Source of the DNA: Blasia pusilla | Lineage: Eukaryota | NCBI GenBank assembly: GCA_050084515.1 | Contig: CM114271.1 | Location: 25,358,001-25,422,000 of the forward strand | Length of the DNA stretch: 64,000 bases | Direction: 5' to 3' | Part shown: one piece after another, positions 15,920 through 50,229 of the stretch | How positions within the stretch are numbered: position 1 is the first letter of the stretch | How the letters are laid out: each line of letters begins with the position of its first letter | The notes under the pieces: generated by a model | Seen by the model: the letters and a program-made list of their open reading frames with translations, nothing else | What the model was told of the DNA's origin: nothing | Databases searched by the model: none | Translations under genes and position numbers: made by a program

Positions 15920-16561
15920 TATTGTGCGCATACACATTGCTATACAACATACATCGCTGTCACCGAACATACACACAAACATACATGATCCCATGCTAAC
16001 TCATGGCATCCACATAACAAGACGAGAAATACCAAAATATCTCCAATCTCACATTGGAAATCAATCAAATCTCTCTACATCTCACACCAAGGTCTCCACG
16101 ATGTGCACTCTCTCTCATGTCAAACCAAACCCATTCTCCTAATGAGAGGCTTGGATTACACACACAAGGCAAAGAGGACCATAGCTTCGCTACCTCATGC
16201 CAAGAGGTTCAACAAAGAGAGAACGAGCTCTCAAGCTTTCTCTCTTGGAGGTATACCCCTTCCCTCTCCCAAGCCCTCTCCTCGGTACCTATGCTCGCAG
16301 GTCACCTCCTTGGATCTTGACTTGCTGTAGCGGGTCAAAGGTTACTTCCAAAAGTGGAAAGTTGACTCTATCATAAACAACCACTTACCCGAAATATTAA
16401 GTTCTTCAATATGGCTGTAAGTGAGCCAAAACAAAGGGGAAACCTGCTCTCGTAAGTTATCCATGGCCTCATCAGGTGATCCTCAACTCCCTAAGGCTGT
16501 CCACCAGTACCTCCTAAGGTGAGCTACTAGATCTCCCCGATCTATCCTAAAAGACGTGACA
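15920..16561 (-). mobile_element. Solo terminal repeat (A+B) of gypsy family 1
   Basis: Reverse complement starts TGTCACGTCTTTTAGGATAG and ends GTGTATGCGCACAATA. Colinear with 24527-25150 and 35467-36102. Flanks ATTG/AGTG (possible 4-bp TSD, 1 mismatch). Confidence 0.85.
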
Positions 16562-17901
16562 AGTGTGTGGCAGAAAGGGAAATACTCTAATGAATCTTTC
16601 TCATGTGTATTTTTGGCCAAAGCATGCTTGAGCCAAGTGCATCACGAAAAGTCTCTTGCGTAGGTTCATTAACCAAATTTGGCATCCATAGAGCATGTTC
16701 AGGATCAAACACTTTGTCACGATTGTTAGGATAGATCAGCAAGATCTAGTAGAGCGCCTTCGGAGATACTAGAGGACAGCCTTAGAAGGTCGAGGATGAC
16801 TTGCTAAGGCCCCGGATAACATGAGAGAAAAAGTTTCCCCTTCGTTTCCGCTCATTTGGAGCCATATAGAGAAACTTACTATTTTGGGTAAGTTTCTATT
16901 TGGAGTGTAGTTGGCTTTCCACTTTGGGAAATGGCCCTTGACCCGCTATACCATGTCAAGATCCAAGGAGATGACTAGTGAGCTCAGGTTATCGTGGAGA
17001 AGACTTGGGAGAGGGAAGGGGATATACCTTCAAGAAAGAGAGCTTAAGAGCTCATTCTCTCTTTGTTGAACCTCTTGGCACGAGGCGGCGGAGCTATGGT
17101 CCCTTGCCTTGTGAGTGTAATCCAAGCCTCTTATTAGGAGGGTGGGTTTGGTTTGACATTGAGAGAGACATGTGAGAGCGCATACATGTGAGAGCTATGG
17201 TGTTGTGAGAGAGATTTGACCTTATTCTACAAAGAGAGAATGAGAGGGTAAGAGCTTCAATGGAGGAGCTTGCTGGTTACTCGCTGTTGGTGCAGGTTTC
17301 GTACCGTATTTCCTATTCAACGGCTCATGGGAGTGCTCACCGGATTAAGCGCTACTTGTTTTACTTTTTTTTGTTGTTAATTTTTTTGTGTGGAAGAGTG
17401 GCGCGCGGATCGGAAGCACTACCCAAATTTCCTTAGAGATGAAGTTTGGGGGCGGATTTCCCCATTCCAGTGCTCTCAAGAGCACCAAGTAGCTTGTTGG
17501 TTTTGATTTTACAGGTCTGAAGTTTTGTGTGGAAGAAATTAGCGCGGAAGCGCTGCCGATTTTGTCCTAGGAGTGCAGATTTGAAGGGCTGCAAGACTGT
17601 TCCTGTCAGTTGTTTTGGGAAAGTTAAATGAAAGAAAAAATTGAACCTTGTCATAGATCTCAAAGCTCTACACGTTGTGTAAGAAACGGTACGCAATTTT
17701 GAGTTGAGAGAAAAACATTATGATCAATCTTACAAAACTGCCATTGCTAGGTGATTTTTAGGGTAAAATTGTTCAAACCCTAAACTAACCGCCGTTTCCG
17801 TCATAGTCACCGTCAACGCTCCTCAGTTAACAATCAACCTTCAGAGTCGACGGTCTGCCATTAACGGTTCACTGTCATCATCCATTGTCCACCGTCAACG
17901 A

Positions 17902-19146
17902 TGTCGCATAGTAAATCAGCCAGTGTGTAAACTCCTTCCTCATTAAGTGTTAGATAGAGTTTTATTAGTATTATGTAAATTAACCTAGGAAAAGGAAATT
18001 CCCATGTTTAAATCTTTTTATGGTGCCTATTTTATGCGAGCCCAATTTTAGGAAAAGAGGTAATAAATAAAAGATGAATTTATAAAAGCAAAAGTAGTCT
18101 TGGTTGGTGGCTAGGTTAGTTGGGGTAATTTGGAAAATATCAAGTGGGTAAAAGAGGATATTTTAGAAGAGATAAGAAGAAATTTACTTGTGTAAAAATA
18201 TGATTGGCTAAGCCTTCAGAGGTAGCCATGTGGCTCAACATAAGATTAGCTCTATTTCGTACTCTTATGAATCCCTTGTGAATAAATAAAAAGGAGGGAC
18301 CTTCAAGGGTTCATCACCTTCTATTTCACATATTGAGTTTCTTTTGTCACTCTTGAGTGTATGGCTTTGGGATTGCTTGCTTTTCCAATTTGAGTGGATC
18401 ATCCCTCTTGGGAGAGTAACTTAACCATGATCTATTCTTCGAGAGGTTTCTAGAGTGTGGTGTGTGTGTGGAGATGAGAGGCTTGTCACATTAGAGGAGT
18501 TTAGTCATATTAAAATAGTGAATGTTTTGGCCTGTTATTTTCCCAATGAGAGCGGATGACCCTTCTTGGGAGAAGAATTCCGCCAAAGCCCATTCTTGAG
18601 GAGAGTAGAGAATGTCTATCAAGCATGGATAGGGATGGAGTACGAGTTGTGCCCGAATTTCCTTTCCTCAATCCTTACCATATCAAGGTACTATTTGTAG
18701 ATAGGCACTAATTCACTCGTTATTTAGTTTAACACTTTGGCGAGGCGTTCATGAACTAGGTCATGCAATCTCCAACTCCGGTGATTCTTCCTATCGTCAC
18801 ATGTGGAAGGACATGGGATTGTACTTTGTATGTCCTTGTATAGCGATCCATGGACGTCAACAGGCCTACACAAGTAGGGTTTAACATTAGTTGTGCTATC
18901 TTCCTCGTGTACAAGCGTAAAGTAGTTTATAGGGATTTAATAGTTAAGAATTTTGGGGTCCGATGTTGCGAAGAAGTGATCGCCTTGACACTTCCATTTG
19001 TGATACTTATCATGAGAGAATGGAGAGTATACATAATAATTTTGTATTGAAAAAGGAGAACTTCTTAGAGAGTTCACCTTGCATCGATCACGTCTGCCGC
19101 AGCTAGAAGGTCCGCCCTTACTTGAAGAAAGGCTCTCAACATGACA
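17902..19146. mobile_element. 1245-bp solo LTR-like insertion of a third family inside the 5' UTR of element 1
   Basis: Termini TGTCG...TGACA, flanked by ACGA (17898-17901) and ATGA (19147-19150), a 4-bp TSD with CpG decay. Removing it restores colinearity with the element 2 UTR near 53430-53520. Confidence 0.8.
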
Positions 19147-20181
19147 ATGATCCACGGTGGACCGTCCGACATTGCTGCCGCCTAGCGCCATTGAGAGCCG
19201 CCTTCGGCCGTTGGTTGCCATTTCCTCCATTACGAAGCCACGACAACCGTTGATTCTCTGACTTGATCCACCACCATGTATTTTATTGTGGCCATTGCCG
19301 TCATCACAATTTTTTCATCAACCATTGATGGTAGGTGACCTCGGTTTGATGGTGTTTGAGTTTTCATTTCATTTTGCTATGTTGTGATTGGTAGCCGCTT
19401 GACGATGATCGAGCAATGTGCGGTGTTGCTTGTGGCCGCACCGTACCGTCTCGATCGCAGAGCCGCTCCTTCACTAAGGTATAGAGCATATGTATTGTTG
19501 ATGGAGGAAGGTATGCCGTGGAGTGCCGGATCTCATTATCGAGTGCCGTGCCATTTTATAGTTATTCCGTGCCGCACCGTATCGTTGGATCCGCACCGTA
19601 TAATGAGGAGCTTTAAGCATCGTCACCACTAGAGGGGTACGACTTTCTGATTGGAGGATTTTATCGTCACGACCGAGTTGGGATTAAGGTTTGCAGTTGC
19701 TAAGAAGCGATTGATATTTGTTCACATTACCCATTTTGGTCTTTTGCGAGTACGTGTTAGGGAATTCCACGTATTGGTAGTTATTTGGGATATTGGATTT
19801 CGTGCAGATGCTGAGAGCATCATTGATGTATGGGTTTAGAGGACATAGACCTATGTGGGGTGTCTAGAGTTGAGGGTGTGTGTTATTCATGAGATGATAG
19901 GATAGTAGTTGATTTGCCGCACCACGCCGCTTGTTGTCGCACAACACACTTCTCAGTGAGAGAGAGAGTGTAGATTGAGTGCCGCATGTTAGTTTGAGTG
20001 ATTGAATGATTACTTGTAAGGTTGAGAGTGATTGCGTCAGAGGGGTATGAGGATCATCATGGCATCATTTTGGGACTTTGAGAGGTGAGGTGGTGGACCC
20101 GAGAGTAGCTCTAGAGATTTTATGCGGAGTGGCGCAAGGTTTTGAGGGTCTTCACGTGAGGGAGTGACTTGACCTCCTTTT

Positions 20182-21706
20182 ATGTCATCTTCAGATGTGG
20201 GGGAGAGTGTAGAACAGTGTGTTAGTGCATCACTGCACACAGTTAGTGGTCCTACCCCTTGGGAGTACGAGATGGACGACCGGGGTAGAGGAGAACGTAG
20301 GTTTTTGGGTGCTATAGGCACTATAGAGTTACAAGACTTCATTTGCGGAGTTTATGAGTTGGTGTGACTCACAATGGGCTAGGAACTCTAGAGAGTTTAA
20401 CCCATTTACATCATGGAAAGATATGTTCTTGCACCTAGAGAGGGCATCCATGGACGATTACCATGAGTTCTACCACATATATGCCAAGGAGATTGAGGCA
20501 TGGCGACTCTACTATGACCCACACTATGTGTCATGGACGAAGCCGTTCCTAGATGAGGAGGAGTCAAAAGAGGCTACTTCCTCTTCCGCCAGTAATATGT
20601 TAGGAGGTATAACTCGCACTGGAGCAGTTGCATCGTCCAGTCAGGTCTATCCCATGTTCAACCCTGTGGTTGAGTTCTTTGCATAGATGAGGACGAGCTA
20701 CTAGGAGGTACGGACGGAGAAGTTTCGGAGCATCCACGACTTCCAGAGGCGCCCGGGTGAGAGTTTGCGGGAGGCCTAAATTCGCTTACGTAGGTTGATT
20801 AACGTCACTTAGGGGTGACAAAGGCCCAGGCTATCCAGTCATGGTACGCGATGCTGGACCAAACCTACGGACACGGGTGCGGGAGGGGGTGCTTCTTATG
20901 AACACCTCACCCATGTTGAGAGATGTTTTTAGGACCATCGAGAACATTGAAGGCAACATGGCGGAGGAGAGTGTAGCCACCATGAGTTCTAGGCAAGAGA
21001 AACCACGAGTATCTGCACCACCAATACAACAACGTGGATTTCGAGAGAGGACTGTGGCACCACGAGCATATGGAGGTTATCGAGAGCCTGTGCCACAGAG
21101 ACCTGCTCCATCATATGCGGCGCAGCAGCCGCCACATATTATTTGTTGGGCATGCGGTGGAGCTCATCAGCGGCACGATTGCACGCGTCAAGGTTATAAA
21201 CACGTGCCTCAGTATGGAGGAGGAGATGGTGCTGCACCAAGAGGTTATCAATGTGACTATTTTCAGAGGTATGGTCACACACACGCTAGATATTTCAGCT
21301 TACACCTTGAGTTACGTCTGGACCAAGGGCCAGAGAAGGCACGAGAGCAAGTAGCTAGTCCGGGTGGACCTAGAGGTCATGCATTAGGTGGTCCCGTTGG
21401 GGGACAAGGAGCTGGAGTTGCCCGAGGGGGTGGTGGAGTTGCCCGTGGAGGAGATAGAGTTCCACCACCTAGACCCGTCTAGGGGAGACACCGGGCATGA
21501 GGTTGGGGATGGCTGTTCAGATACAGCAGCTACAACAACAGATTGCCACTATGGCATTGAGGTTACTCGATGCCGGATCGATGGCATTGACGTCATATGG
21601 AGCAGCCAGAGATATGGAGGATCTTGGTTGGATGTTTGTGGTTGCCCTGATAGAGCCTGCCGCAATTATTACACGTGGAGCAGCCGTAGAGTTGGATCCA
21701 CAATGA
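20182..21706 (+). pseudogene. Degenerate gag of element 1
   Basis: ORF fragments FLGAIGTIELQDF / SWCDSQ...MDDYHEF and zinc knuckle CWACGGAHQRHDC plus a second decayed knuckle. Homologous to 50929-52539 and 45283-46519. Confidence 0.75.
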
Positions 21707-22138
21707 GGGGAAGCGAGACAAAAAACCATGCTTCCTCAGTCTTTCATGTTGTCTAAGGCGATGAGGACCCCATCGATGGGTCATGATCTGAGTTCCCGAA
21801 GAGTTGGTGATATTGTTGGTGTGCAAGCACAGAGGGCGATGGGAGAGGCGAGTGCGACGACTTCTATTGCTGATGCTTAGGAGGAGCATGTGTTGAGCAC
21901 GTTGTTTGGGGCAGCCAATGTTGTGTACCGCGCTCCTTTATTTTTTTGCTTCCGATGTTATGATGTTGGGAGGTACGCCCACCAAGAATTTCCAGCTGGC
22001 CGCTACGCTATATGAGCGTGGAGTTGGTGTTCCTGCGTCAGACTCACGGGTGATTGTAAAGGAGGTGATGGACTTGCCCTTGGAGCCTATGCTCGGGCCG
22101 TCCACGTCAGATTCATGGTAGGCTGGGGCTACTAGGAT

Positions 22139-22700
22139 GGCAGAGATGCCCGCTAGACCCGTGATAGAGTGTGCCATGGCTTCTCCTGGTGTTGTATTGC
22201 TGGATAACCGGGGAGAGGTATTCCAGTTGTTGATTCCAAGAGATAGAGTTCTTAGACCACAACGCGTCTTGTTGGATTCAGGAGCGCAACCCTAATGCTG
22301 GGGAAAGAGGCATTCATAGGATAGGGCTTGACGAGAGCCGATGTGGAGCATTGTCCACTCCGGGTACAGACATCCTTGGGTGGAGCAAATACCACAAAGT
22401 GTATCACCCGATAGGAAGTTGTGGTGAGGATTCGTCCGGGACATCCTACAGATGAGTCCGTGGTGCAAGCCAAGGCGATAGTGACCGATGTAGAGTCCTA
22501 CGACGTCTTGGTTGGTGGAGCACTATTGTACCCGATGAGGTTTTCTCTAGATTAATAGGAGGAGTCAACATCCTACAAACCAAGATGGCAGTCAAGTGAT
22601 GGGCGCCTTAGCTCATTCCTCGTTTGATTCATCGGTGGAGTGATCAAGCGACGGCCAGGAGAGATTGCGACCTAAGCAGCATTTAGCAACGCCATCATTC
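22139..22700 (+). pseudogene. Degenerate retropepsin (aspartic protease) of element 1
   Basis: RVLLDSGAQP motif at ~22262-22292, matching VLLDSGAQPLML in elements 2 and 3. Confidence 0.75.
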
Positions 22701-22818
22701 GGCCTAGTGATTTGATTGAGGGACATGTCCATGGAGAGGACACTCCCATTCTTGACATTTCTAAGAAGAGGAGTGTCATGGTAGCCGCATCAGTCCGTGG
22801 AGGAGAGGTGGCACCGTT

Positions 22819-24211
22819 GCGAGCACCGTGGGTGCTAGAGAGCGGGATCGGATCGCTACAGCGGGCCAGACGGTTCCGTTGGGAGGGGACACATGTTTTG
22901 AGGGTTTGGGAGGATGGCAGAGTACGCGTAGTGCCACATCCTTTGCAGAGAGCACGACTAGTGCAGCATGCCCACGAGGAGTTGGGTCACTTTGGGGTGA
23001 AGCGGAGATACAGCTTGCTCCAAATTCAGTATTGGTGGCGAGGCATGCAGACTGACATTCAGGAGTTTGTTGCTAGGTGCATGGTGTATGATCGGGTCTG
23101 AGCATCGTTCAATGCTCCGACTCCACAGTTGCATCCATTATCGATCATGGGCTTAGTGTATAGATGGAGTTTGGATTTTGCACGACCTTTGCCTTTGACG
23201 GAGCGTCATAGTCGTTATGTGTTGGTGATGGTCGACCACTTCTCAAAGTGGATCGAGTTGGTTTCATTGCCTGACAAACCGAGTGAGGGAGTAGCTTATG
23301 CCTTCCTTGACAGAGTGCTGAGTCATTACGGTGCACCGGCTGAGGTGTTGACATACCGGGGTACCGAGTTTTGCGGTGAGTTCCAGGCCTTGTGTGATCA
23401 GACACTGATCGATCATCGCACGACTTTGCGAGATCATCCCGAGGCGGATGGATTAGCGGAGAGAGTTGTGCAGACCGTGAAGAGGGGTTTACGCAAGTAT
23501 GGCTTGCAGAGAGTTCACCTAGGAGATTGGGACCTCCAATTGCCCTGGTCGGCGATGGGATACAGATTCAACAGGCAGACATCCTTAGCATCTTTTTCAT
23601 CGTACTTGCTATTTTATGGCCGAGAGCGAGATTTACCTGCGGCCATTCGTCGAGATGCTAGTGAGGTGTTGGACCTTGATGATCCAGATGTATGGATGTG
23701 AGCATGTTCTCAGAGGGCTGAGTTGTTTCGGAGAGTGATGCCCATGGCGTTCGAGAACTTGGCGATTGCACAACATCGGGATACTTTGAGGTATGCGACT
23801 ATTTGGGGTGGTGGTTATCGATCAACTATCGGGAGATTTCATCAAGGAGATTATGTCTACTTGCAGCAGATTGCACCGACGACGTTGGATGGGACTGCAG
23901 GGCGCACTATCCTGAGAGTGCGTGACATTTTTCCGTCCTGTGTTCTCTTGCTGGAGAGACGCGATGGTATGGTATGGAAGGACAATGTGCGTAGTTGTGC
24001 GCCATATCACCTTCCTAACATTGATGGTACAATAGATTCGAGCTCAGCAGTAGTTCCTGCAGGCTTGCGTTGTATGTTGTGTGGTTCTGCCCGTGGTGCG
24101 GCCACGATGCTAGTCTGTGATGTATGTTCGAGAGGTTGGCATATGGCATGTCTGACGCCACCTCTCACTAGGGTTTCTCAGGGACGATGGATGTGTCCCA
24201 GATGTACATAG
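22819..24211 (+). pseudogene. Integrase with C-terminal PHD finger (element 1), interrupted by stops
   Basis: HHCC region (HEELGHFG...CMVYDR), DDE core (WSLDF...VMVDHFSKW...ADGLAERVVQTVK) and C-terminal CMLC...LVCDVCSRGWHMACLTPPL...WMCPRC (C4HC3). Confidence 0.92.
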
Positions 24212-25150
24212 AGGAGATACTAGGTAGGTTTGGATTCCGACTTTTTCTGTGACATGGATGACAGGAAGGCAACTAACGATGGCCCCACATGAGCACCCGA
24301 CCTTGTTTCTCTTAGCGTCCTAGAGATGTATGTCGTGGTAGGTAGAGATAGATGGCTATTTGGAGTTAGAGGGACTTAACCACTAGCTAGGGGGGCGATT
24401 GGAGATATTTGGCACTTCTCGCCTCTGTGTTTGGATGCCATGAGTTAGCATGGGATCGTGCATGTTTGTGTGTGTGTTCGGTGACAACGATGTCTGTTGT
24501 GTAGCGATGTGTATACGCACGACAACTGTCACATCTTTTAGGATAGTTCGGTGAGATCTAGTAGAGCGCCTTCGTGAGTAGTGGAGGATAGGCTCTGTAG
24601 GTTGAGGATGACCTGCTGAGGCCTCGGGAAACCTGAGAGAGCAGGTTTCCTCTTCGTTTCGGCTCATTTGGAGCCATATTGAGGAACTTACTATTTTAGG
24701 TAAGTACCATTTTGAGTATATGATTGACTTTCTATTTTTGGTAATTGGCCCTTGACCTCCTACATCAGGTCAAGAGCCAAGGAGGTGACTTGGGAGAATA
24801 GGTCACCATGGAGAGAGCTTGGGTGAGGGGAGGGGTATACCTCAAGGAGAGAGAGCTTGAGAGTTCATTCTCTCTTTGTTGAACCTCTTGGCATGAGGCG
24901 GCGGAGCTATGGTCCCTTGCCTTGTGAGTGTAACCCATGCCTCTCATTAGGAGAGTGGGTTTGGTTTGACATGAGAGAGAGTGCATACCTTTGAGAGCTA
25001 TGGTGGGAGATGGTGTAGAGAGAGATTGGATCTTACTTTATTGGAGATATTTTGGTACTTCTCGCCTTTGAGTTTGGATGCAATGAGTAAGCATGGGATT
25101 GTGCGTGTTTGTGTGTGTGTTCGATGATAGCGATGTGTATGCGCACGACA

Positions 25151-35466: not shown

Positions 35467-36412
35467 GCATACACATCGCTGCACAACATACATCGTTGTC
35501 ACCGAACACACACACAAACACGCACGATCCCATCCTAACTCATGGCATCCAAACAACGAGACAAGAAGTACTAAAATATCTCCAATAAAATAAGATCCAA
35601 TCTCTCTCACAACACCATAGTTCTCACATGTGTGCACTCTCACATATCTCTCTCAATGTCAAACTAAAGCCACTCTCCTAATGAGAGGCTTGGGTTACAC
35701 ACATAAGGCAAGCAAGACCATAGGTCCACTGCCTCATGGCAAGAGATTCAACAAAGAGAGAATGAGCTCTCAAGCTCTCTCTCCTTGAGGTATATCCCTC
35801 CTCTCTCCCAAGCTCTCTCCATGGTAACCTATGCTCCCAAGTCACCTCCTTGGCTCTTGACTTGATGTAGGAGGTCAAGGACTACTTACCAAAAATAGAA
35901 AGTAGATCATATACTCAAAATGGTACTTATCTAAAATAGTAAGTTCCTCAATATGGCTCCAAATGAGCCAAAACAAAGGGGAAACCTACTCTCTCAAGTT
36001 TCCCGGGGCCTCAACAGGTCATCCTTGACCTACTGAGTCTGTCGTACACTACTTACGAAGCGCTCTACTAGATCTCACCGATCTGTCCTAAAAGACGTGA
36101 CAATTATCGTGCGCATACACATCACTACACAACATACATCGTTGTCACGGAACACACACACAAACACGCATGATTCCATGCTAACTCATGACATCCAAAA
36201 AATGAGACAAGAAGTACTAAAATATCTCCAATCGCCCCCCTAGCAGGTGGTTAGGTCCCTCTAACTACAGATAGGCATCTATCCCTACCTACCATGACAT
36301 ATATCTCTCGAACGCTAAGAGCAAGAAGGTCCGGTGCTCATGTGGCCCCATCGTTAGTCACCTTCTTGTTATCCATATCACAGACACAAGTCGGAATGTA
36401 GAACTACCTATT

Positions 36413-37790
36413 CTATGTACATCTGGGACACATCCATCGTCTCTAAAGAACCCTAGTGAGAGGTGGCGTCAAACATGCCATATGCCATCCTCTCGAACAC
36501 CCATCACAGACTAGCATAGTGGCTATATCATGGGCGGAACCACACAACATACACCGCAAGCTTGCAGGAACTATTGCTAAGCTTGGATCAACTGTATCGT
36601 CAATGTTCAGAAGATGACATGGCGCACTGTTACGCACACTGTCCTTCCAAACCATATCATCGCTTCCCTCCAATAAGAGAACACCGAATGGCAAAACCTC
36701 ACGCACTCTCAAGATGGTGCGCCATGCAGTCACATCCAACATCGTGGATGCCGTCTGCTGCAAGTAGACATAGTCTCCCTGATGAAACCTCAAGATAGTA
36801 GGTCGATAACCACCTCCCCAAATAGTCGCATACCTCAACGTATCCCGATGTTGTGCAATCGCCAAGTTCTCAAACGCCATGGGCATCACTCTCCAAAACA
36901 AGTCAGCCTCTGATAACATGCTCGCATCCATACATCAGGGTCATCAAGGTTCAACACCTCACCAGTATCTCGACAAATGGCCGTGTGTAAATCTGGCTCT
37001 CGGACATAAAGCGACAAGTATGGTGAGAAAGACGCTAAGGATGCCTACCTGCTGAATCTGTATTCCATCGCCAACCACGGCAACTAAAGGTCCTAATCTC
37101 TTAGATGACCTCTCTACAAGCAATACTTGCATAGTCCTCTCTTCACCGTCTTCACACCCCCCCCTCTGCTAGTCCATCCGTCTCAGGATGATCTCGCGAA
37201 GTAATGCGGTGGTCGATTAGTGCCTGATCACACAAGGCCTGAAACTCCCCACACAACTTTGTACCCTGGTCTGTCAACACCTCCGCTGGTGTGCCGTAAT
37301 GACTTAGCACTCGATTTAGGAAGGCATACGCTACTCCCTCACTCGCTTTGTCAGGCAATGCAACCAACTCTATCCACTTCGAGAAGTGCTCGACCATCAC
37401 CAACACATAACGACTATGGCGCTCTGTCAAAGGCAAAGGTCGTGCAAAATCCAAACTCCATCTGTAACCTAAACCCATGATCGGAAGTGGATGCAACTGT
37501 GGAGTTGGAACATTGAACGATGCTCAGACTTGATCACACACCATGCATCTGGCAACAAACTGCTAAACATCAATCTGCATGCCTCGCCACCAATACTGAA
37601 TCTAGAGCAAGTTGTACGTCCGCTTCACTCCAAAACGACCCAACTCCTCGTGGGCATGACGCACCAAACGTGCTCACTACACGCACGCTACCATCCTCCC
37701 ACAACTCATAACGCATATCTGCCCTCCCACTGGAACCATCTGGCTTGTTATAGGATCTGATCCCGCTCTCTAGCACCCATTGTGCTCGCG
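36413..37790 (-). pseudogene. Integrase + PHD finger of element 2
   Basis: WSLDFARPL...VMVEHFSKW...VLTDQG...DHPETDGLAE, then CMLCGS...LVCDGCSRGWHMACLTPPL..*RRWMCPRCT*. Confidence 0.9.
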
Positions 37791-38020
37791 ATGTTGCCAA
37801 TACACAAGTACTCCAAGACCACTCCATCATCGTGAATGTCTCAGCCACCTGTCATCTCCTCACCGACCTTTGGATCTAAGGACTCTCCATTAGACCTCGC
37901 CATCAAAGTCTCAACAATCTGGCTCTCCATAGCTAACAAGCCCAAATAGGCTGACGCATGCCATCTTGGCACCAACTCCTCATCACTCTCACCATGCCAA
38001 CGAGCTCCAGTCGCATCTCG

Positions 38021-39406
38021 CTAACTCGGGCATGGGTTACGACTCAAACCATCTGCATCCTGGTTGAGCATCCCTGGTCTATGCACCACTTGGAAGTCAT
38101 ACTCCTGCAACAAAAGAGCCCACCTTGCAAGCTTCCCTGTAAGCTTGTCGGACTCCATCAACCACTTAAGTGGCTGATATTCAGTAATGATGGTAAAGGG
38201 ATTCCCGAATAGATAACATCTAAAATGTGCGACAACCCACACTGTAGCCAAGCACTCACCCTCATACGAGCTATACTTCGCCTCTGCAGCGTTGTTCGAG
38301 CAACTAGCGTAAGCCACCACGAACTCTCTACCATCATCGTCATGCTAGGTGAGCATGGCTCCAAGCCCCAACATGCTCTAATCGGTATGCAAGTGGAAAG
38401 TACGCCCCTTGATCGGTCTCTTCAATATGGGCGCGGACGTCAATTTTTCCTTGAGCATCTGAAATGCTCTTTCTTGCTCATCCTCCCACTGCCACTCCTG
38501 ATCCATCTTGGTCATCAAGGTTAGCGGCTTCACAATTGAACTAAAACCCTTGACGTACCGTCGATAGAAGTTCACAATCCCATGAATGCATGAATTCGAA
38601 TCACATCAATAGGGCGCGGAATGCGTGAAATAGCCTCTACCTTTGTTTATTGCACACCAAGGCCCCCAGGGTATATTGTATGATCAAAGTACTCAATCTG
38701 GTCATAGAAGAACTTGCACTTGCCTAGATGTAGCTTCAGTCCATGTAATTGCAATCGTCAAAAAACCTCCTCTAAATGTCCCTCATGCTCCTCAACTGTG
38801 GCACTAAAGACTACGATATCATCAATATAATACCTAGAAAAATCCAGACCTACCAAGATCCTATCCATGACCCTCTGAAACTCAGCCAAGGCGCTCTTTA
38901 ATCCAAATGGTAAGAACCGGCACTAGTACAAACAATCCTTCCCGTGAGGATCGATGTCCCAAAATGCCGTCTTCTGCCTGTCCTCCAATCTGATAGGCAG
39001 TTGATGGTATTCGGCTTGCAAATCCAATGAACTGAAGACCTTTGCATGCCCGATCGCATCAAATATCTCCTTAGGAGTGGGCATGGCATACCTATCAAAC
39101 TTTGTCTGTCGATTGATAGGTCGATAATCTCCACACATCCGCCTATCCGTCCAATTGCCATGCACATCCTTCTTGACGCGCATGACAATGGCAGATGCAT
39201 ACTCTCCATGCAAAATCTCCACTAGTCCTGCTCCAACCAAGTCCTGGCTTCTACTTTGAATCAGAGCCCTCTCCATATCACTATACCTATAGGGTCATCG
39301 AAGATCAGCGTGTCACTCTACAACTCAATGCGGATCCCTGGACCCTTCAACATACCCAAATCATGCATACTAAATGCAAAACAACTCCTATAACTCCTAA
39401 GGAGCT
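38021..39406 (-). pseudogene. Reverse transcriptase + RNase H of element 2
   Basis: RRMCGDYRPINRQT, FSSLDL..YHQL, YIDDIVVFS (~38810-38830), NFYRRYVKGFS, LHTD, YSSYEGECLA, LARWALLLQEYDF, DADGLSR. Confidence 0.92.
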
Positions 39407-40137
39407 TGTCGTGCGAATCGTTGACATACCATACTCACATACATACATAACATAGACGAGAGCATCCACAAACATAACTGTACCACAACTGAAATCCGTG
39501 AAAGACCTACTGTCATAAAACACATATAGAATCACGCACAATCGAGCCAAACCCACTCCACGATGGGAGAATCTAGGTCGAAGCTTGCGGGGAAGACCAT
39601 AGCCAAGAGCTCTACTCACTACCAAGGCTAACTCCCAATGCAACAGGCTCAACTCAAAGAACTGACTGTTCTTTGGATGCACTCCACACTATATCCTCCA
39701 ACCGAAGAGCGGGCCCTACTGGGAAAGTTACCCCAACTAAGTAACCCCCAACCCTATGTATGAAACCACATCTCTACCTAGCCACTACGGTCCTACATAA
39801 GGTATGGCCTCTACTAGCACACTATATTCTACGACATAATCCGTATGGTTACGACAACTATCATGCGAATCCACCTTGTCATATAATATACATCGCTGAC
39901 ATACCATACTCACATACATACATAACATAGACGAGAGCATCCACAAACATAACTATACCACAACTCGCCCCCCTAACTGGCGGTTAGATCCCTCTAACTC
40001 CCAGGTAGCCCTATACATCTACTACGTGCTATACACCTTCGTGGGTGCACGAATCAAAAGGCCGGGTGCTACGTTGCCCCATTGTTAGTCGCACATCTGT
40101 AATCCATATCATGCAAAGATCAAGTCATCTACCTCTC

Positions 40138-41561
40138 CTAAATACATTGAGGACAAACCCACCTTCTAGTAGGAACAACATCCATACGTGGAGTCAAACA
40201 TATCATGTGCCAACCCCTAGAACACTGATCACACACCAACATACGGGCTGCGTTACCAGCAGACCCACACAACATGCACCTCAAGCTAGCACGTATCATG
40301 GCTAAGCTTGGGTCAACAGTACCATCCACATTTGGAAGATGACATGGCGCACAATTACGCACATGGTCCTTCCAAACAACTCCATCACGATCCTTCAACA
40401 TGAGAACTCCAGAAGCTAACACCTCGCGCACTCGTAAAATAGTGCGGCTTGCCGTCACATCCAACGTTGTCGGTGCAATCTGCTGCAAATAGACATAGTC
40501 CCCCACATGGAACCTACGAATCGATGGTCGATAACGTTCATCCCGAAAGGTTGCATACCGCAACGTATCTCTATGTTGAGCAATGGCAAGATTCTCAAAG
40601 GCTGTTGGCATAACTCTCCGAAAGAGCTCTGCCCGCTGAGAACATATCCTCATCCACATCTCTGGGTCATCAAGGTTCACCACCTCACTAGACTCCCGAC
40701 GAATTGCTGCTGGCAAGTGTGGATCTTGGCCGTATAATAGAAAATAAGGTGAGAAGGAAGCCAAAGATGCTTGGCGACTGAACCTATATCCCATGGCTAA
40801 CCATGGCAACTGAATATCCCTGTCTCCAAGGTGCCCCTTCTGTAAGCCATACTTGCACAATGCCCTCTTCACCGTCTGAACCACACGCTCAGCCAAACCA
40901 TCCGCCTCTGGATGATCTTGAGACGTGGTCCGATGATCAATCAACGCCTTGTCACACAAGACCTGAAACTCACCCTGAAACTCTGTACCCTGGTCGGTTT
41001 GCACTTCAGATGATGCACCAAAATGACTAAGCACTCTATGAAGAAACGCGTACGCCGTACCCTCACTTGCCTTGTCAGGTAATGCCACCAACTCAATCCA
41101 CTTGGAGAAGTGCTCCATCATCACCAACACATATCGATATGTCGTACAGTCAACGGTAACGGTCCCGCAAAGTCCACACTCCAACGGTAACCCAACCCCA
41201 TAATACGCAAGGGGTGTAACTGTGGTGTAGGGGCATTGAATGATGCCCTCACCCGGTCACAAACCATACAACGTGACACCAACTGCTGCACTGAGTATGC
41301 ATGCCACGCCACCAATATCGACCAAGGAGTAAGCTATACGTACGCTTTACCCCCAAATTGCCCCAACTCCTCATGGGCATGTCGCACAATGCGCTCTCTC
41401 TGAGCCAAATGCGGCACTACTCGTACTCTACCATCCTCCCACACACGGAGAATATGTGTTCCCTCCAATCGATACCTCTTAGCACGTTGAAGAACACGAT
41501 CTCGCTCCTTGGCACTCACTATGCCTGGCACCCTACTGGTCCGTATGAACTCCAACACCAA
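40138..41561 (-). pseudogene. Integrase + PHD finger of element 3
   Basis: 348-aa ORF with DDE core (MMEHFSKW...TDQGTEF...ADGLAERVVQTVK) ending CMLCGS...LVCDQCSRGWHMICLTP...WVCPQC. Upstream HHCC fragments. Confidence 0.92.
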
Positions 41562-41627
41562 CGCATCATCATGAATATCACGCTGATCCGCACGCCATCT
41601 CCAACCTTAGGATCTCAAGGTGGCCAT

Positions 41628-42880
41628 CTACCCTCGACTAGAGTAAGATGTCATGTGGTCCTCCATACTAGAGTCCACCCCTAACCAACATAAAAAGGCG
41701 GATGCATGCCAACCTGGCACCATCTCCTCATCAACCTCGCCATGCCATCTAACCCCAGTTGCATCCTCTTGGCTAGTATATGGGTTCCTACTCAACCCAT
41801 CAGCATTAAGGTTGGCAACTCCAAATCTATGTACCACATGGAAGTCATACTCCTGTAAGATAAGAGCCCACCGTGCAAGCTTCCCTATAAGCTTGTCGGA
41901 CTCCATCAACCACTTGAGCGGCTGGTGATGAGTAACAAGGGTAAACTGTGTGCCAAACAAGTAACACCTAAAGTGTGCCACAACCCACACTATTGCCAAG
42001 CACTCTCCCTCATATGAACTATAGGGCGACTCCGCTGCATTATTCGAACGACTTGCATAGGCCACCACAAACTCCATGTGCTCATCATCATGTTGTGTCA
42101 TACCGCTCCAAGTCCCAACCTACTCCAATCAGTGTGTAACTGAAATTGGCGCCCTCTAATAGGTCTCCTCTAGATAGGCGCCGCCACCAACTGGGCCTTA
42201 AGCTCCACAAAAGCTCTCTCTTGATCATCTCCCCTGTGCCACTCTTGATCTGATTTCAGCAATTGGTTCAAAGGCTTTGCCATAGCACTAAATCCCTTCA
42301 CATACCTCCGATAGTAGTTCGCCAATCCCATGAATGCCCGAACTCTACTCACATCTACCGGACGCGGAAAAAGTGCAATAGCCTCCACCTTTGCTTGCTG
42401 AACTCCCAAACCACCTGGATAGATCACATGACCCAAGTACTCAATATCCTCATGGAAGAACTTACACTTTCCTGGAATGCAAACGTAGACCATGAGCTTT
42501 CAACCGCTCAAACACCATCTGCAAATGTATGTGATGCTCCTCCACCGTGTTACTGAACACCAAGATATCATCAATGTAACACCGAACAAAATCCAACCTT
42601 GCTAGGATCCTGTCCATCACTCTCTGAAATTTGGCAGGTGCATTCTTCAACCCAAAGGGTAAGAATTTCCACTCGTACAAACAATCCTTGCCATGAGAGT
42701 GGACACCCCAAAATGTTGTCTTGGCCTTGTTACTCTCCCAAATTGGCAATTGATAGTATCCAGCCCGAAGATCCAAAGTACTGAAAATCTTTGTCTGTCC
42801 CACCACATCAAAGATCTCCTCAGGTGTAGGCATGGCATAGCTATCGGCCTTGGTTTTCCGATTGATAGGACGGTAATCTT
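41628..42880 (-). pseudogene. RT (N-terminally deleted) + RNase H of element 3
   Basis: DYRPINRKT...LDLRAGYYQL...LPFGLKNAP...CYIDDILVFS; ANYYRRYVKGFS; YSSYEGECLA...ARWALILQEYDF...NADGLSR. Confidence 0.92.
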
Positions 42881-42899
42881 CCACGATAATAGTCCGAAG

Positions 42900-43880
42900 T
42901 CGACGCTGATCGGCCATACCAAGACTCAAAATCCAAGTCAAACAATTCAAGTCCATGGCCTGATCCAACACAACGTCATGAAGCCTCAGAAATGGAAGCA
43001 ACCGTTGTCACACCAGTAGCAAATCCCATCGCACGCTCTATCTCATCAGCATTAGGCTCCACCAACTGTCGCACATGAGAATCCCATACAAGCCCAGGAC
43101 CACCTTCCCTGTATGCATGTGACGAGGGAAAACTCACAAATATGGGTAGTGCCATCCTAGGTTGGCCCACACGATTCACCACTGCCATGGGTGACCGATC
43201 AATAACCCTCACTACCTGAGAAAGTCGCCTAGTATCCAAGATACTATCCACTGTAAGGCAAGGATCCCGCTGCACTGCATCATATGCTCGACGTAGAACC
43301 TCCCTAGGCAACAAGTTTGTCCACCACAAGCGTGGACGATGTGCACGAGAGCCAACTCGCGCTGCATCCAACAACACCGCTGGTCCAATCCAAGACCGCA
43401 CCTCATGAACACTCGCCATCATCCGGGTCTGAGTGTCACCCAACAATGGAAAATTCTCCAGAATGTAAGCTAGAGTATGTGCCTGATGAACCTGAAGATG
43501 TCGTAACACCCGTAACATCTCCCAAAACAATCGAGACCTAGGGTCGTGTAATCCCTCACCACGACCACCACGTGTATGACCCTGACATGGCCATCCAGCA
43601 ATCACCAAATCCACAGGACCAACCCTCTCAAGGTCCTGCGCCCCCAACAATACAATGTGTGACGGCAAAGCACGTTGGTACCCACGAATAGCTGATGGCG
43701 GCAACAACTCAAGATATCTCCGCATCAACTGACCAATATGTCAGGATGAGACTCTCTGGGCCGTCTCATCTCGCTCCACATACACGTACCTCCGCACAGG
43801 AATACCGGCCTGCAACACTGCAGCCAAACCAGTGCTAATCCCACCAAAGAGATCTAACACACAAATGCCCTCCGACGGAT
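42900..43880 (-). pseudogene. DNMT3-like C5 cytosine methyltransferase domain within pol of element 3
   Basis: Motif I VLDLFGGISTG, II YVERD, IV DLVIAGWPCQG, V DPRSRLFWE, VI YILENFP, VIII DAARVGSRAHRPRLWWTNL, IX EIERAMGF, X VLDQAMDLNCL. At least one stop (43741) and one frame break near motif X. Confidence 0.93.
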
Positions 43881-44034
43881 ACTGCCATATAATGGGTATA
43901 GTATCCAAAGGGGATAACCCAACTGGACCAAAAGTAGGAGTCCGCCGTGGGGCCTCCTCTTCCTCGTGAGGTATAACAGCCTCACACCAAGCCTCTTGCA
44001 CTAGGCGATCAGCCTCTTGCGGTAGTGCACCGCC

Positions 44035-44820
44035 TCAACTCCAAAGTGGCACATCCAATGATGAGGATGCCACTGCTGCAAAAATAGGGACCTCCTCTAC
44101 CTCTTCATGCACAGGAGAATCCATAGCAGCAACATTACCCTCCAAAAAGTCTCTTGGCCAAGTGACTACTCCACTAAAACCAGCCAGAGATGCTAACACT
44201 GTTGGGGAAGACCCTCTTGGTCGAGCCCCATAAATAAATCTCACAGTAACTTGGCTCATATGTCCATCCCCGGACTGCCAACCAGGTCTATAAGACGCTG
44301 TCTCAGTCCAATAATCCATGTGAAAACCCATCCGGTACAATATTGCTCCTCTAACTAGTATATCATATTACTCGCATGATGTGACCACTGCACGTACTCC
44401 CAACCGAGATCTATCAGTCGCATGATCTGGTCTCAACAGTACAGAAAACTTCTGCCGTGTCATGAATTGAGACCTATCATTGGCTCCTCCAAGTGATGTT
44501 TGAATCTGGAATGGGCAAGGCTCAAGCTCTGACCTCCGAATACCCAAACCAATACATGTCGCCTTTCCCAACATCAAAGGTTGGGCACCAGAGTCTAACA
44601 AGACTCTATATGGTCTATACACCTGTCTTGTAGGACTTACCAATCGGAATATCCCATTCCGGTTGTCCAACATACATACACCAGGTGTAAGCCTCTCGCG
44701 ATCAATGGCTGGTCGGGTTGGTAATGCATCCATCTTCACCGCTGCTGCCTGCCAAGTAGCACTGATACTTAATGCTACACTTGACATAGAGGGTCGCTCC
44801 ACCGCAACACCCTCATCCAT
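44035..44820 (-). pseudogene. Aspartic protease of element 3
   Basis: RVLLDSGAQPLMLG...CPFQIQTSLGG. Confidence 0.85.
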
Positions 44821-45282
44821 CTCAGCACGTGCAGCAGTAACACCCCCACGTTCTTACAACGTGGCTGCTAACTGAAATACAGGAGCTAAGTTAACTCCTA
44901 AAGCCATTAGTTCCGTGGCCAAAAACAATGGGGATCCCAACACTGAAGTTGCCATCCGCAATACTGCATTGGATGCTGCAGCCGTGTCTACTACACGCGA
45001 TGTAGATGCCTCAGTCCCCAATGTCGGCTCAATAGGCTGCGTAGGAACCATGGATGGAGTCCTAAGCACCTCAGACAACAAGAATGACTGGGAAAGCCTA
45101 GCCTGCCTCCTAGCCTCATCCCTCTGTGGGTCCAACTCCACCGTAGCACCACGTGGCTCTGACGCTCGAGTGGCTCCTCTCGTAACTGCAGCCGATGCCT
45201 CAACTTGTGTTGCACTCGCCATATAAGAGAGATCATCCCCTCCATAAGAGATGGAAGCCCCTGCTCCCGAATCTGATCTATG

Positions 45283-46519
45283 CTAGATACCAGCCATAGT
45301 AGCCAACTTCTCCTCCAACTGCTCAATCTTGGCAGCCATAGCTGACTCTGTCATAGTGGTAGGGGTGGCCACCGTAGGCTCTCCAACCACCGGTCCACCT
45401 CTACCACCTCTACCACCTCTACCACCTCGGCCAATGCTCTCGAGGATGACTTGGTCTCCCGCAATGATCACACTAAAATGGGGCCGACTGAGGCCCATCC
45501 TCCAAAGTCCGTCTCCCATCCTCTTGGGGATAAAACTTCATAACATGATCACCTCCACATGTCCAACATGACTGTCCTTGCTACGGGGCAGCAAATGAAG
45601 GCAATGGTCTCTGCGCAAGTGTCCCTCTAGGACCTGACTGAGGTCGTGTGTACCCCCCACGACTCCCACTACTACTACCACCACCACTACTACAAGATTG
45701 TGAGGTGGGCTGCTGAACATGAGAAGTAGTAGTTGTATCCCTAGTGAATGCGGATGTCACCACTCTCTCCTTCACCATGTTAAGCTCAATCTTCTCAGAT
45801 AGAGCAAACACATGGGTCAATGTGGGTGAATCATCACTCATAAGAGTAGCATCACGTACCCTGCGGCGCAACTCTCTGTCCAAGATCCCATACCAAAACT
45901 GGATTGCCTAAGCCTGAGTCACACCCTAGGTAATTGATCAAGCGTCGCATACGAGTGTATGCCTCACGAAGACTCTCACCAGTCTTTCGCTCAAATTCCT
46001 GAAGACTCCTCAACTTCTCTATCTTCACTCCCTGATAGTTCTTCTTCAACCTCTTGAAGAACTCTGCAATCGGGCTGAACGATGGTCGGGCACTAGTACC
46101 TCCACTAGTACCCCCATTGGTACCTCCATGGGTACCTCCACTCGTACTCCCACTCCGGCTCGCACTCGTACCACTCAACGTCGGGCTGGTTAGCATAGTA
46201 GGAGCACTACTACCAATACCACCATGGGTGATAGACACATAGCCTGGAGACCAATATTGTCTCCACGCCTCAATCTCAGCAACATGATCCTTCCTAAACT
46301 CATGGTAATCATCCATGGGTGGTCCCTCCAAGTGCTAAAACAACCCCTTCCAAGCCAAGAAGGGTTCCGCAACATCTGCATATCACACCATGTATCAAAC
46401 TCCTGCATGAAATCCTCCAACTCAATGGTGCCCACTGCACTCGAGTATCGTCGTGGGCCCTTCATGGTCCCATATATTCTGTCCATGTCCCAAATCAATG
46501 GAGCTGCAACGTTTAACAA
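45283..46519 (-). pseudogene. gag of element 3
   Basis: AVGTIELEDFMQEFDTWCD, MDDYHEF, GVKIEKLRSLQEFERKTGESLREAYTRMRRLI (retrotransposon gag-like) and an RGG-rich nucleocapsid region. Confidence 0.8.
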
Positions 46520-48899: not shown

Positions 48900-49885
48900 T
48901 CTGTCGTATCTTCACATGACGTTGCTCAGCTACTCCTAAGCTGAAAATCCATGTCAACCAGTTCAGGTCCATCGCCTGACCCAAGACATGACATCGTGAT
49001 GCCTCCGATAGTGATGGTACTTTCGTCACTCCTGTGGGGAATCCCATCGCTCGCTCTCCCTCATTGGTGTTGGGCTCCACCAACCTCTGTACCTGGTCAT
49101 CCCAAACCAAGCTAAGTATGGCGTCTTTGAATCCATAGGAAGCGGGAAAACTCACCAATGTGGGAAAGGCGGCTTGTGGCATGCCAATCCTGTTGACCAC
49201 AGTCAACGGCGGTCAATCATTGTGCCTCACTGCTTGTGATTGACGGCGCGGATCTAATATAGAATCCACCAACAAATCAAAGGGACGCTCCACTCTTGCA
49301 TAAGCCCTCCGCAATACCTCATGTGGTAACAAGTTGGTCCACCAAAGACGCGGGCGATGTGCTTGTGAACCCACACTCGCCGCATCTACCAACACTGCAG
49401 GCCAATCCATCCGCGCACCTCATGTACACTCGTCACCACGCGAGACCTCAAATCTCCCAAAATTGGCACATTCTCCAAAATGTATGTTGGAGAACGAGAC
49501 TAATGATCTTGTAAATGTCAAAAGATCCGCATCATCTCCCAAAACAATCGGGACGGAGTGTCAGCTAACCTGCTACCTCATCCAGCACTTGATTGGCCCT
49601 GACACGGCCAACTAGCAATGACCAAGTCTATGGTCCCTACCCGCTCCAAGTCTTGCATCCCAAACAATGAAATGTCCCTCGATAGGGAACTCTGGTAACC
49701 CTGAATGGCGGACGCAAACAACAAGTCGAGAAAATGGAGGTGTAACAACGCCATATGGTGAAGTGAAGCGCGCCTTGCAACATCATCAATCTCCACATAC
49801 AGGTACTGCTGCACGTGCACTCCAGCGTGCAAAACAGCAGCTAACCCAGTGTTGATCCCTCCAAAGAGATCCAACACCCAAATAC
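48900..49885 (-). pseudogene. DNMT3-like C5 cytosine methyltransferase domain within pol of element 2
   Basis: IWVLDLFGGINTG, YVEIDD, DLVIASWPCQG, YILENVP (~49468-49488), DAASVGSQAHRPRLWWTNL, ERAMGFPTGVT, CHVLGQAMDLNWL. Confidence 0.93.
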
Positions 49886-50229
49886 CCTTCTCAGGGATGC
49901 ACCACGCAATCGGGGTGGTATCCAAAGGGATCATAGCAGCACTCCTGCCTACCTGGGGTTCCTCTAACCCGTCACACTCTAGTGCAAATTTCTCGCTCCA
50001 CACGGTCTGCATGTGCTTAGTGGCTAAGCATCGGAGCTCCTCAGTCGAGCCCCAAAGCGACACCTCGCCTCCACAAACTACCATGACACTCCTCTCCATA
50101 GAAATGTCAAGAACGGAAGTATCCTCTGCGTGGACGTATCCCTCAATTAAATCACTAGGCCAAGTGATGGCACTGCTAAATGCTGCTAAGGTTGTGTCAT
50201 GGTAGCTATGGAAAATCCCATCGGGTATA

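Follow-up and report, generated by a model that had tools for sequence, protein, structure and literature searches.

Chromoviruses carry a chromodomain at the C-terminus of their integrase; what occupies this position in the Ty3/gypsy retrotransposons of the liverwort Blasia pusilla, and what might it do there? The question is raised by a stretch of 64,000 nucleotides (assembly GCA_050084515.1, contig CM114271.1, positions 25,358,001 to 25,422,000 of the forward strand), here called the window, in whose own numbering all coordinates below are given with their strand. An original prediction, made from the letters of this stretch, had noticed that the pol region of three elements, here A, B and C, ends in a PHD-type C4HC3 finger at the place of the chromodomain, and that a DNMT3-like DNA methyltransferase (DNMT) accompanies it. 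We find that the finger is a genuine PHD, shared by a large clade of green algae and bryophytes. Furthermore, these fingers form the integrase C-terminal module of an old Ty3/gypsy lineage, of which the window holds liverwort Gypsy-DNMT3 members, and to this picture as a whole, with the intasome anchored by the finger to the tail of histone H3, we give an even chance.

The pol of all three copies terminates in a Cys4-His-Cys3 PHD finger of family PF00628, with the spacing C-x2-C-x11-C-x2-C-x4-H-x2-C-x14-C-x2-C that corresponds to the canonical PHD ligands, and the pattern LVCDxCSRGWHMxCLTP...WxCPxC is present in each of them. In copy A the finger is located at 24071..24205 (+; E 7.3e-11, 42.4 bits, profile positions 1-47 of 47), within an open reading frame (ORF) of 169 residues without a stop (23702-24208, +), and ends one residue before the pol stop at 24209-24211. 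The finger of copy B (36419..36553, -; E 1.4e-7, 31.9 bits; pol stop 36413-36415) embeds an in-frame stop at 36443-36445, and that of copy C (40144..40278, -; E 8.7e-10, 38.9 bits; pol stop 40138-40140) closes an open 372-residue ORF (40141-41256, -) that also holds the rve core (E 3.7e-11). All three fingers exceed 24 bits, the curated Pfam gathering cut-off, and alignments of 64 and 60 sequences show each zinc ligand either unchanged or conserved to at least 90%. When the stop-to-stop ORFs of all three elements (96 + 43) were compared with Pfam, no chromodomain family matched at E<=0.001. The finger is therefore a bona fide PHD standing at the chromodomain's place, as the original prediction had it. 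That the match arose by chance, or that a neighbouring host PHD gene contributed an exon, has a probability that is practically nil and was ruled out: in three copies the integrase runs on into the PHD in the same frame and without a gap, the same junction recurs in hundreds of proteins from many taxa, and the Pfam scores lie above the cut-off.

The integrase of copy A occupies 22676..24208 (+) in one frame, as three ORFs separated by single in-frame stops, and is also matched by tblastn to the relative P0133. It consists of an H2C2 zinc domain (22676-23098, +; PF17921, E 2e-14), the rve core (23102-23698, +; PF00665, E 2e-12), and the C-terminal domain with the PHD (23702-24208, +; PF00628). 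The structural model of the 372-residue ORF of copy C, with a mean pLDDT (predicted local distance difference test) of 74.4, shows in this order an RNase H-like core, a long helix at residues 198-230, a beta domain at 242-304 (pLDDT 80-91) and the PHD at 320-372 (82-92). Its fold matches are the integrases of prototype foamy virus (PFV; 285-295 aligned columns), Ty3 (360 columns) and human immunodeficiency virus (HIV). This model and these matches identify the integrase as one of retroviral type and place the PHD directly behind its SH3-like C-terminal domain, to which a linker of ~20 residues joins it.

How widespread is this junction? With the copy C integrase as query, 312 proteins of near length and 225 longer ones were matched at E<=0.001; among the best 240 relatives listed, almost all carry PF00628, and the Pfam annotations of these 240 include no Chromo family. 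Identity to copy C amounts to 79-84% in Marchantia, 75% in Calypogeia, 65% in Sphagnum and 47-49% in Klebsormidium, and to ~44-48% in Chromochloris, Pleodorina, Tetrabaena and Haematococcus. The last 170 residues, comprising tail and PHD, were also searched against a database of 1.84 billion cluster representatives, of which 4036 matched at E<=1e-3, a number that falls to 783 with E<=1e-10 and to 198 with E<=1e-30. Of the best 150 listed, almost every one matches query residues ~4-170, and since these relatives match both parts as a single stretch, tail and finger constitute one conserved module. A second search with tail and PHD returned unnamed PHD clusters only. Between the window subfamilies (A-C, B-C), dN/dS, the ratio of nonsynonymous to synonymous substitution rates, is 0.13-0.15 over 47 PHD codons, values that are rough because dS between subfamilies exceeds 1. 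As judged from these comparisons, the module of tail and PHD is conserved from chlorophytes to bryophytes and is under purifying selection.

A DNMT3-like domain is found in copies C (42919-43866), B (48772-49961) and D, the last being a fourth, truncated copy that consists of a DNMT fragment alone (60872..61702, -; PF00145 E 4.5e-9); copy A is without one. The longest open piece, in copy C (42979..43740, -; PF00145 E 2.8e-7), spans motifs IV to IX, with motif I further upstream past an in-frame stop. When frames are read through, motifs I, IV, VI and VIII follow each other in the usual order, which is that of a non-rearranged C5-methyltransferase. Of its 41 matches in the PDB, 30 are DNMT3B, DNMT3A or DNMT3C (top E 7e-8, DNMT3B), and the remainder are the bacterial M.HaeIII and M.HhaI. 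The DNMT of P0133, an intact relative to which the copy C piece is 39% identical (E 1e-35), gives a comparable picture, with DNMT3-type enzymes making up 29 of 34 PDB matches (top E 1e-6). The label 'DNMT3-like', also used in the original prediction, thus appears fair, DNMT3B/3A/3C being the best solved matches, with the proviso that copy A has lost its own domain. Beyond the window, the DNMT query of copy C matches many gene models of Marchantia polymorpha (62-75% identity) as well as proteins of Calypogeia, Sphagnum and Closterium; several of these relatives bear a CCHC knuckle and an aspartic protease upstream. Klebsormidium proteins were not among the 60 matches of this query.

Does the methyltransferase accompany the finger throughout the clade? 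Hidden Markov models (HMMs) built from segments of P0133 were run over 360 proteins, 85 of which hold both reverse transcriptase (RT) and integrase (IN). In 45 of these 85, which we call type II, a long linker of 559-812 residues separates RNase H (RH) from IN, and the DNMT lies within it in 45/45. The other 40, type I, have a short RH-IN linker (115-349 residues); six of them extend at least 330 residues upstream of RT, and in five of these six the DNMT precedes RT, as it does in the window. The exception, P0232, combines a short RH-IN linker with a protease-like stretch and a PHD, has no DNMT, and groups with type II in the tree. Overall, the order RT-RH-DNMT-IN-PHD was found in 45 proteins and DNMT-IN-PHD in 32, and in nearly every informative relative the DNMT accompanies IN-PHD. 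We had considered that the PHD clade might be wider than the DNMT carriers, as suggested by PF00145 in just 13 of 120 long proteins listed; this idea was rejected because the clade-specific HMMs show that Pfam under-detects the DNMT. The original prediction had treated the combination as peculiar to these elements, and in this it has to be corrected, as it is instead a trait of a large and old clade, and a DNMT-bearing Gypsy family has been published (PMC5890265).

The two arrangements differ by lineage. In the streptophyte type (P0133, P0385, P0411) the DNMT lies between protease (PR) and RT, and in the chlorophyte type (P0184, P0193, P0159) between RH and IN. A FastTree phylogeny of the integrase-to-PHD region (205 sequences, midpoint root) splits into 68 sequences, with all of type I together with Klebsormidium and Calypogeia, versus 137 with type II and the chlorophytes. 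Over 348 residues, the DNMTs of type I and type II share 43% identity (E 1e-68), a likeness that far exceeds that of either to the cellular DNMT3 enzymes in the PDB. This suggests one capture of a DNMT, followed by its move within pol. The bryophyte-type pol ends 1-14 residues after the PHD, and chlorophyte-type proteins extend 10-507 residues past it; an extension of ~320 residues after the PHD of chlorophyte-type relatives had no Pfam match at E<=5. By eye, the stretch just after the PHD in P0184, P0159 and other type II proteins resembles a small beta barrel. We also note that in P0159, from Pleodorina, the catalytic Pro-Cys of DNMT motif IV appears to be lost.

So to which class of PHD does the finger belong, and would it sense lysine 4 of H3? 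Compared with the PDB at E<=0.01, the finger of copy C has matches in 77 distinct sequences. The best 60 of these 77 include KMT2C and KMT2D (2e-16, 9e-16), PHD2 of DPF2/DPF3, CHD4, ATXR5 (2e-12), PHD1 of KDM5B/KDM5A, WSTF, BAZ2A/B, PHF10, PHF21A/BHC80, UHRF1/2, KAT6A/B, PHF12, MTF2, AIRE and CHD5; the cage readers of trimethylated lysine 4 (H3K4me3) ING, BPTF and TAF3 are neither among these best 60 nor among the listed fold matches. The PHD model of copy A (mean pLDDT 80.4) has 36 PDB matches at E<=0.001, with query-based template modelling (TM) scores of 0.64-0.74, and all those listed are PHD fingers or chains aligned over one. The leading ones are UHRF1 (a lattice structure), DPF3 with H3K14ac, ATXR5 with H3, DPF2, BAZ2B, PHD1 of Lid/KDM5 and CHD5, and further down the ranking are BHC80 and ORC1b with unmodified H3. 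BHC80 and CHD4, two of the types that the original prediction had named for comparison, are among these relatives, both by sequence and BHC80 also by fold. By sequence and fold alike, the finger belongs with the cage-less readers of the unmodified H3 N-terminus.

The individual residues allow for a finer distinction, for which we counted 187 fingers of the clade, 36 of them bryophyte-type (including window copies A and C) and 151 others. Fingers with an aromatic cage have a Trp at position -2 of the ligand His. In the clade this position is Gly, in 35/36 bryophyte-type and 138/151 other fingers, and the aromatic cage is, as far as residues can tell, absent. A hydrophobic residue (V, L or M) precedes Cys3 throughout, an Asp follows Cys3 in 35/36 and 140/151 respectively, D32 is invariant in the clade alignment, and the P-x-G-x-W loop is kept clade-wide. 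According to the review by Musselman & Kutateladze (PMC3241642), the subset of PHDs that reads H3 unmethylated at lysine 4 (H3K4me0) has no aromatic cage, inserts the hydrophobic residue that precedes Cys3 as a wedge separating Arg2 from Lys4, and recognises the unmethylated lysine through an acidic cluster before Cys1, an acidic residue commonly holding Arg2. It is in this cluster that the two groups part: an acid within the four residues before Cys1 is present in 102/151 of the others and in 1/36 of the bryophyte-type fingers, which have R or K directly before Cys1, and at least two acids in the Cys2-Cys3 loop occur in 108/151 versus 1/36. As such, binding of the H3 N-terminus by the finger is likely, selectivity for lysine 4 is likely in the algal members, and in the bryophyte members such selectivity is doubtful. 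The missing cage, the hydrophobic residue before Cys3 and the Asp after it agree with the H3K4me0 reader of the original prediction, which for the window copies fails on the acidic cluster, one of the defining features. UHRF1 offers a plausible model for the bryophyte-type fingers, since according to Lallous et al. (2011) it depends mainly on Arg2, through a conserved Asp, and loses affinity only ~3-fold on K4me3.

In the mechanism that we propose, the finger would tether the intasome to nucleosomes by way of the H3 tail, a role analogous to that of the chromodomain in chromoviruses. Its contacts with Ala1 and Arg2 of H3 would be made by the conserved Asp behind Cys3, together with the hydrophobic residue ahead of it. 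A preference for H3K4me0 is probable in the algal and Klebsormidium members, with their acids before Cys1; in the bryophyte subgroup, which has lost the acidic cluster, discrimination at lysine 4 would likely be weak, as in UHRF1, or altered. Processing probably releases the DNMT as a product of its own, so that reader and writer would work next to each other as distinct proteins. The steering of integration by the finger is an analogy with chromoviruses. Several points weigh against this proposal. The window copies, with no acid in the eight residues before Cys1, lack the acidic cluster of the H3K4me0 class, and to our knowledge the fingers of KMT2C/D, which give the top sequence matches, are not established H3K4me0 readers. 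The dN/dS estimate is coarse, as said above, and the three to four copies in one window are no sample for targeting. The genomic context is compatible with insertion into silent, repeat-rich DNA, and equally so with survival of insertions only where they are harmless. Furthermore, PHD fingers can bind non-histone partners (PMC3241642), and the isolated DNMT of a Klebsormidium relative showed no detectable methylation in yeast, a result that its authors call inconclusive (PMC5890265).

Would the finger not simply be a strict H3K4me0 reader, like BHC80 or PHD1 of AIRE, that rejects methylation of lysine 4 and confines integration to chromatin unmethylated at this residue? BHC80, AIRE, CHD4, KDM5 PHD1, BAZ2A and ATXR5 are indeed among its sequence or fold neighbours, no cage residue is present, and the non-bryophyte members largely keep both the acids before Cys1 and those in the Cys2-Cys3 loop. 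We nevertheless consider this possible and on balance unlikely, as the cluster that recognises K4me0 (PMC3241642) is missing from the window copies and from 35/36 bryophyte-type fingers, where a basic residue precedes Cys1, the loop acids are lost to the same extent, and the fold neighbour UHRF1 tolerates K4me3 with the modest loss mentioned above (Lallous et al. 2011). A non-histone role lies in the opposite direction, the finger binding a host protein or nucleic acid, or merely aiding intasome assembly or nuclear import. Loss of the acidic cluster in the bryophyte subgroup would agree with it, as would the non-histone ligands of some PHD fingers (PMC3241642), of which UHRF1-PAF15 and UHRF1-Stella appear as fold entries. 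However, the residues that hold Ala1 and Arg2 of H3, namely the Asp after Cys3, the hydrophobic residue before it and the P-x-G-x-W loop, are kept clade-wide, and the close structural neighbours all have the H3 N-terminus, or a peptide imitating it, as their ligand, which makes such a role quite improbable.

An equally low probability attaches to the idea that the finger guides the DNMT and not the integrase, acting like the ADD domain of animal DNMT3 and directing the element's methylase to nucleosomes with unmethylated K4, where it could for example mark the newly inserted copy or the DNA around it. Throughout the clade a DNMT without a PHD, or the reverse, is very rare, the chlorophyte-type DNMT stands directly upstream of IN-PHD such that a DNMT-IN-PHD product is conceivable, and DNMT3A and DNMT3L are listed among the readers of unmodified H3K4 in the review (PMC3241642). 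In the window, however, over 1000 residues separate the finger from the DNMT, which is placed between protease and RT, and relatives have separate ORFs, those of the P0385 type stopping ~140 residues after the DNMT and those of the P0126 type starting just before RT. Moreover, the finger forms one module with the integrase tail, copy A kept IN-PHD though its DNMT was lost, and P0232 has a PHD without a DNMT. A bolder scenario can be drawn from the same material, which we hold to be rather unlikely as a whole: a single lineage as old as green plants would have kept an H3 reader on its integrase and a DNMT3 writer, moved the writer once within pol (in either direction), and replicated with DIRS-like split repeats despite a DDE integrase. 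It would pick silent chromatin unmethylated at H3K4 and then methylate its own new copy, and the missing acids of the bryophyte members would be the trace of a change of target that followed the host's chromatin. Were it true that reader and writer go together in this way, the lineage would represent a self-targeting, self-marking transposon.

Every copy in the window bears stops and frameshifts, and the window copies are dead relics. The element family, on the contrary, is alive, as follows from transcribed relatives. In each of three RNA-seq runs, which share their species label with the best-matching DNA data, 1624-1841 reads fall on copy C, of which 21-36 match at >=99% identity and the rest at 95-99%. 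From the finger to the DNMT (40027-43991), coverage is 20-110x on one strand versus <8x on the other. What is transcribed are close relatives, not this copy, and, provided that the libraries are stranded in the usual way, the transcription is sense. Five codons of the finger differ between copy C and the reads, which keep all eight zinc ligands (7 Cys, 1 His); four of the five changed codons give the residue found in relatives such as P0033. In addition, 10-26 reads per run in these three runs join 40610 to 41636 with 30 other letters between, from which it follows that an expressed relative bears a ~1-kb replacement within the integrase region.

The complete element has the order GAG(CCHC)-PR-DNMT3-like-RT-RH-IN-PHD, as established from Pfam matches, frame read-through and tblastn with intact relatives, and its RT-RH-IN part, seen in copies B and C, is in Ty3/gypsy domain order. 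Element A (16715..25136, +) is a deletion derivative, in which gag-PR (20287-22819) is joined to IN-PHD (22856-24205). Its alignment with element B covers gag-PR (20142-22545) and IN-PHD (22809-25136) and nothing between, and DNMT, RT and RH were lost by one internal deletion with its junction near 22819-22856. Retaining gag-protease and integrase-PHD, element A may be a non-autonomous derivative. Element B is split by element C, which interrupts it between B's DNMT (48772-49961) and B's RT (39401 downward). The 5' part of B (48561..54452, -) carries repeat A1 (54452-53948) and gag-PR-DNMT (52434-48772), and its 3' part (35467..39416, -) carries RT-RH-IN-PHD (39401-36416) and the repeats B1 (36232-36113), A2 (36103-35586) and B2 (35586-35467). 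The nested element C (39417..48560, -) encodes gag and an aspartic protease with a D-S-G motif (46486 to ~44000, -), the DNMT3-like domain (~43866-42919, -), RT-RH (42878-41142, -), and IN-PHD (41256-40141, -), the order in the integrase being H2C2 finger, rve core, C-terminal domain and PHD. A fifth copy is a terminal A-B repeat fragment (15924..16569, -) that is inverted relative to element A and abuts its 5' side.

All three elements show the repeat layout A1-coding-B1-A2-B2, that is split direct repeats and not two plain long terminal repeats (LTRs). In element A these are A1 16715-17224, B1 24398-24493, A2 24527-25035 and B2 25040-25136 (+), with a polypurine tract ending at 24397, and in element C A1 48560-48192, B1 39965-39892, A2 39857-39490 and B2 39490-39417 (-); in the elements a polypurine tract stands immediately before B1. 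Identity between A repeats is 80% (A), 90% (B) and 93% (C), and between the B repeats within an element 89%, 92.5% and 97%. That C is younger than its host copy B fits these values, because the terminal repeats of C are 93% identical versus 90% in B. Repeat A starts with TTGTCA and, in elements A and C, the extended repeat B finishes with ...CGACAA; the internal B1|A2 joint (..CGACAA|TTGTCG..) therefore reads as a palindromic 'right end|left end' junction, and resembles a circle junction. Split repeats are typical of tyrosine-recombinase elements, whereas the window elements encode a DDE integrase. Clear target-site duplications were found neither for B nor for C, and for A there is merely a possible match of 10-11 bp: the first bases of the tandem array that follows element A (ATCAAACCTT) resemble those preceding its 5' end, which may be a target duplication of 10-11 bp or chance. 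The coding strand of the elements is G-rich and C-poor, with a GC skew of +0.16 to +0.29 (18000-24000, 36000-52000). This skew is not accounted for by lineage-specific substitutions, which are symmetric (C>T ~ G>A), and in CpG depletion and polarised substitution spectra the elements are indistinguishable from their flanks.

The surroundings are those of repeat-rich DNA. No host gene was recognisable in the 64-kb window, and neither were tRNA genes, the targets of Ty3-like elements. What we did find are hAT remnants (dimerisation domain and DUF659, 27637-29125), a piece of a Pif1 2B domain that suggests a Helitron (33548-34066), a DUF4218 piece (59562-60167), and a tandem array of ~9 units of 180 bp (76% matches) at about 25152-26878, starting directly after element A. 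Insertion of element A inside this array was considered and rejected, since its 5' flank (16560-16714) is not array-like: aligned to the array, this flank scores 31, where shuffles have a mean of 27 and a maximum of 39, and it gives no blastn match.

What, then, do these elements add? Elements equipped with chromatin tools illustrate the negotiation between mobile DNA and silencing by the host. Earlier, the Gypsy family with a DNMT was known from one charophyte and thought to originate there; added here are its abundance in liverworts and mosses, a sister arrangement in chlorophytes, and an integrase-tail PHD that accompanies the DNMT nearly everywhere. The window itself is less weighty, as all of its copies are dead. 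The clade, on the other hand, comes with a built-in comparison between fingers with and without the acidic K4 sensor, and this might reveal how integration targets can be retuned by a handful of residues.

The closest known system is KnitGypsy-Dnmt3 of the charophyte alga Klebsormidium nitens (de Mendoza et al. 2018, Nat Commun 9:1341, PMC5890265), a DNMT-bearing Gypsy element, for which the paper speaks of acquisition 'in the K. nitens lineage'. Like the liverwort elements of the window, it is an LTR element of Gypsy order with a non-rearranged DNMT3-like domain inside pol. Its repeat layout, A-coding-B-A-B, is that of all three window copies, and is named as the layout of DIRS elements in the legend of Fig. 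4c (PMC5890265). DNMT and split repeats together therefore tie the window elements to the Gypsy-DNMT3 kind. Klebsormidium proteins with rve and PHD, perhaps other than the DNMT-bearing copies, share the 47-49% identity to the window integrase given above and fall in the same half of the tree. The word PHD has 0 occurrences in the main text and three supplement files of PMC5890265, a count that covers text only, so that Fig. 4c may draw the finger. A literature search returned no description of a PHD-ended integrase in Gypsy-DNMT3 or Marchantia Gypsy elements, of the abundance of the Gypsy-DNMT3 family in liverworts and mosses, or of the two DNMT positions. A DNMT-bearing Gypsy family and retroelement PHDs were thus known before, and the finger on Gypsy-DNMT3 seems to be undescribed.

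PHD fingers as such are no novelty in retroelements. REM1 of green algae is said to carry one (Perez-Alegre is named for this, 2005), as reportedly do the CR1 LINEs of animals, attributed to Kapitonov & Jurka in 2003. In Chlamydomonas, Gypsy-7a_cRei has a PHD listed before INT (PMC9940879), the Chlamys Penelope-like elements are PHD-bearing (PMC8557442), and PHD is called 'a common accessory domain' in the transposons of Chlamydomonas reinhardtii. These retroelements resemble those of the window in having the PHD as an accessory domain, and differ in that the available descriptions give it neither a link with a DNMT nor a place after the integrase tail. Among cellular proteins, the readers of unmodified H3 (PHD2 of DPF2/DPF3, ATXR5, BAZ2A/B, PHD1 of KDM5A/B, PHD2 of CHD4/5, UHRF1, BHC80 and AIRE) are the best sequence matches, with E values from 2e-16 to 5e-6, and also the best fold matches, with a root-mean-square deviation of 0.6-1.5 A over 44-49 columns at 33-47% identity. 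They agree with the window fingers in ligand spacing, in having no cage, in the Asp after Cys3 and in ending with P-x-G-x-W-x-C-P-x-C; unlike them, the window fingers are fused to an integrase and have no N-terminal acidic cluster.

A chromatin reader and a DNA methyltransferase also meet in one retrotransposon in the EpiLTRs, where a chromodomain, an adenine methylase and a DNMT are combined in a single LTR element (bioRxiv 10.64898/2026.05.21.726589). They differ from the present elements in having a chromodomain as reader, a DNMT4-related DNMT and, as an extra, the adenine methylase; 'streptophytes (Gypsy-DNMT3)' are cited in that preprint just as prior work. In chromoviruses, finally, chromodomains direct integration (Gao et al. 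2008, as cited in PMC6673714 and in the same preprint). Both they and the clade described here have a small histone-reader domain on the integrase tail that presumably steers integration, the reader being a chromodomain in the one and a PHD in the other. By this analogy, the PHD-ended integrases would provide, beside chromoviruses, a second natural example of an integrase guided by a reader of histones.

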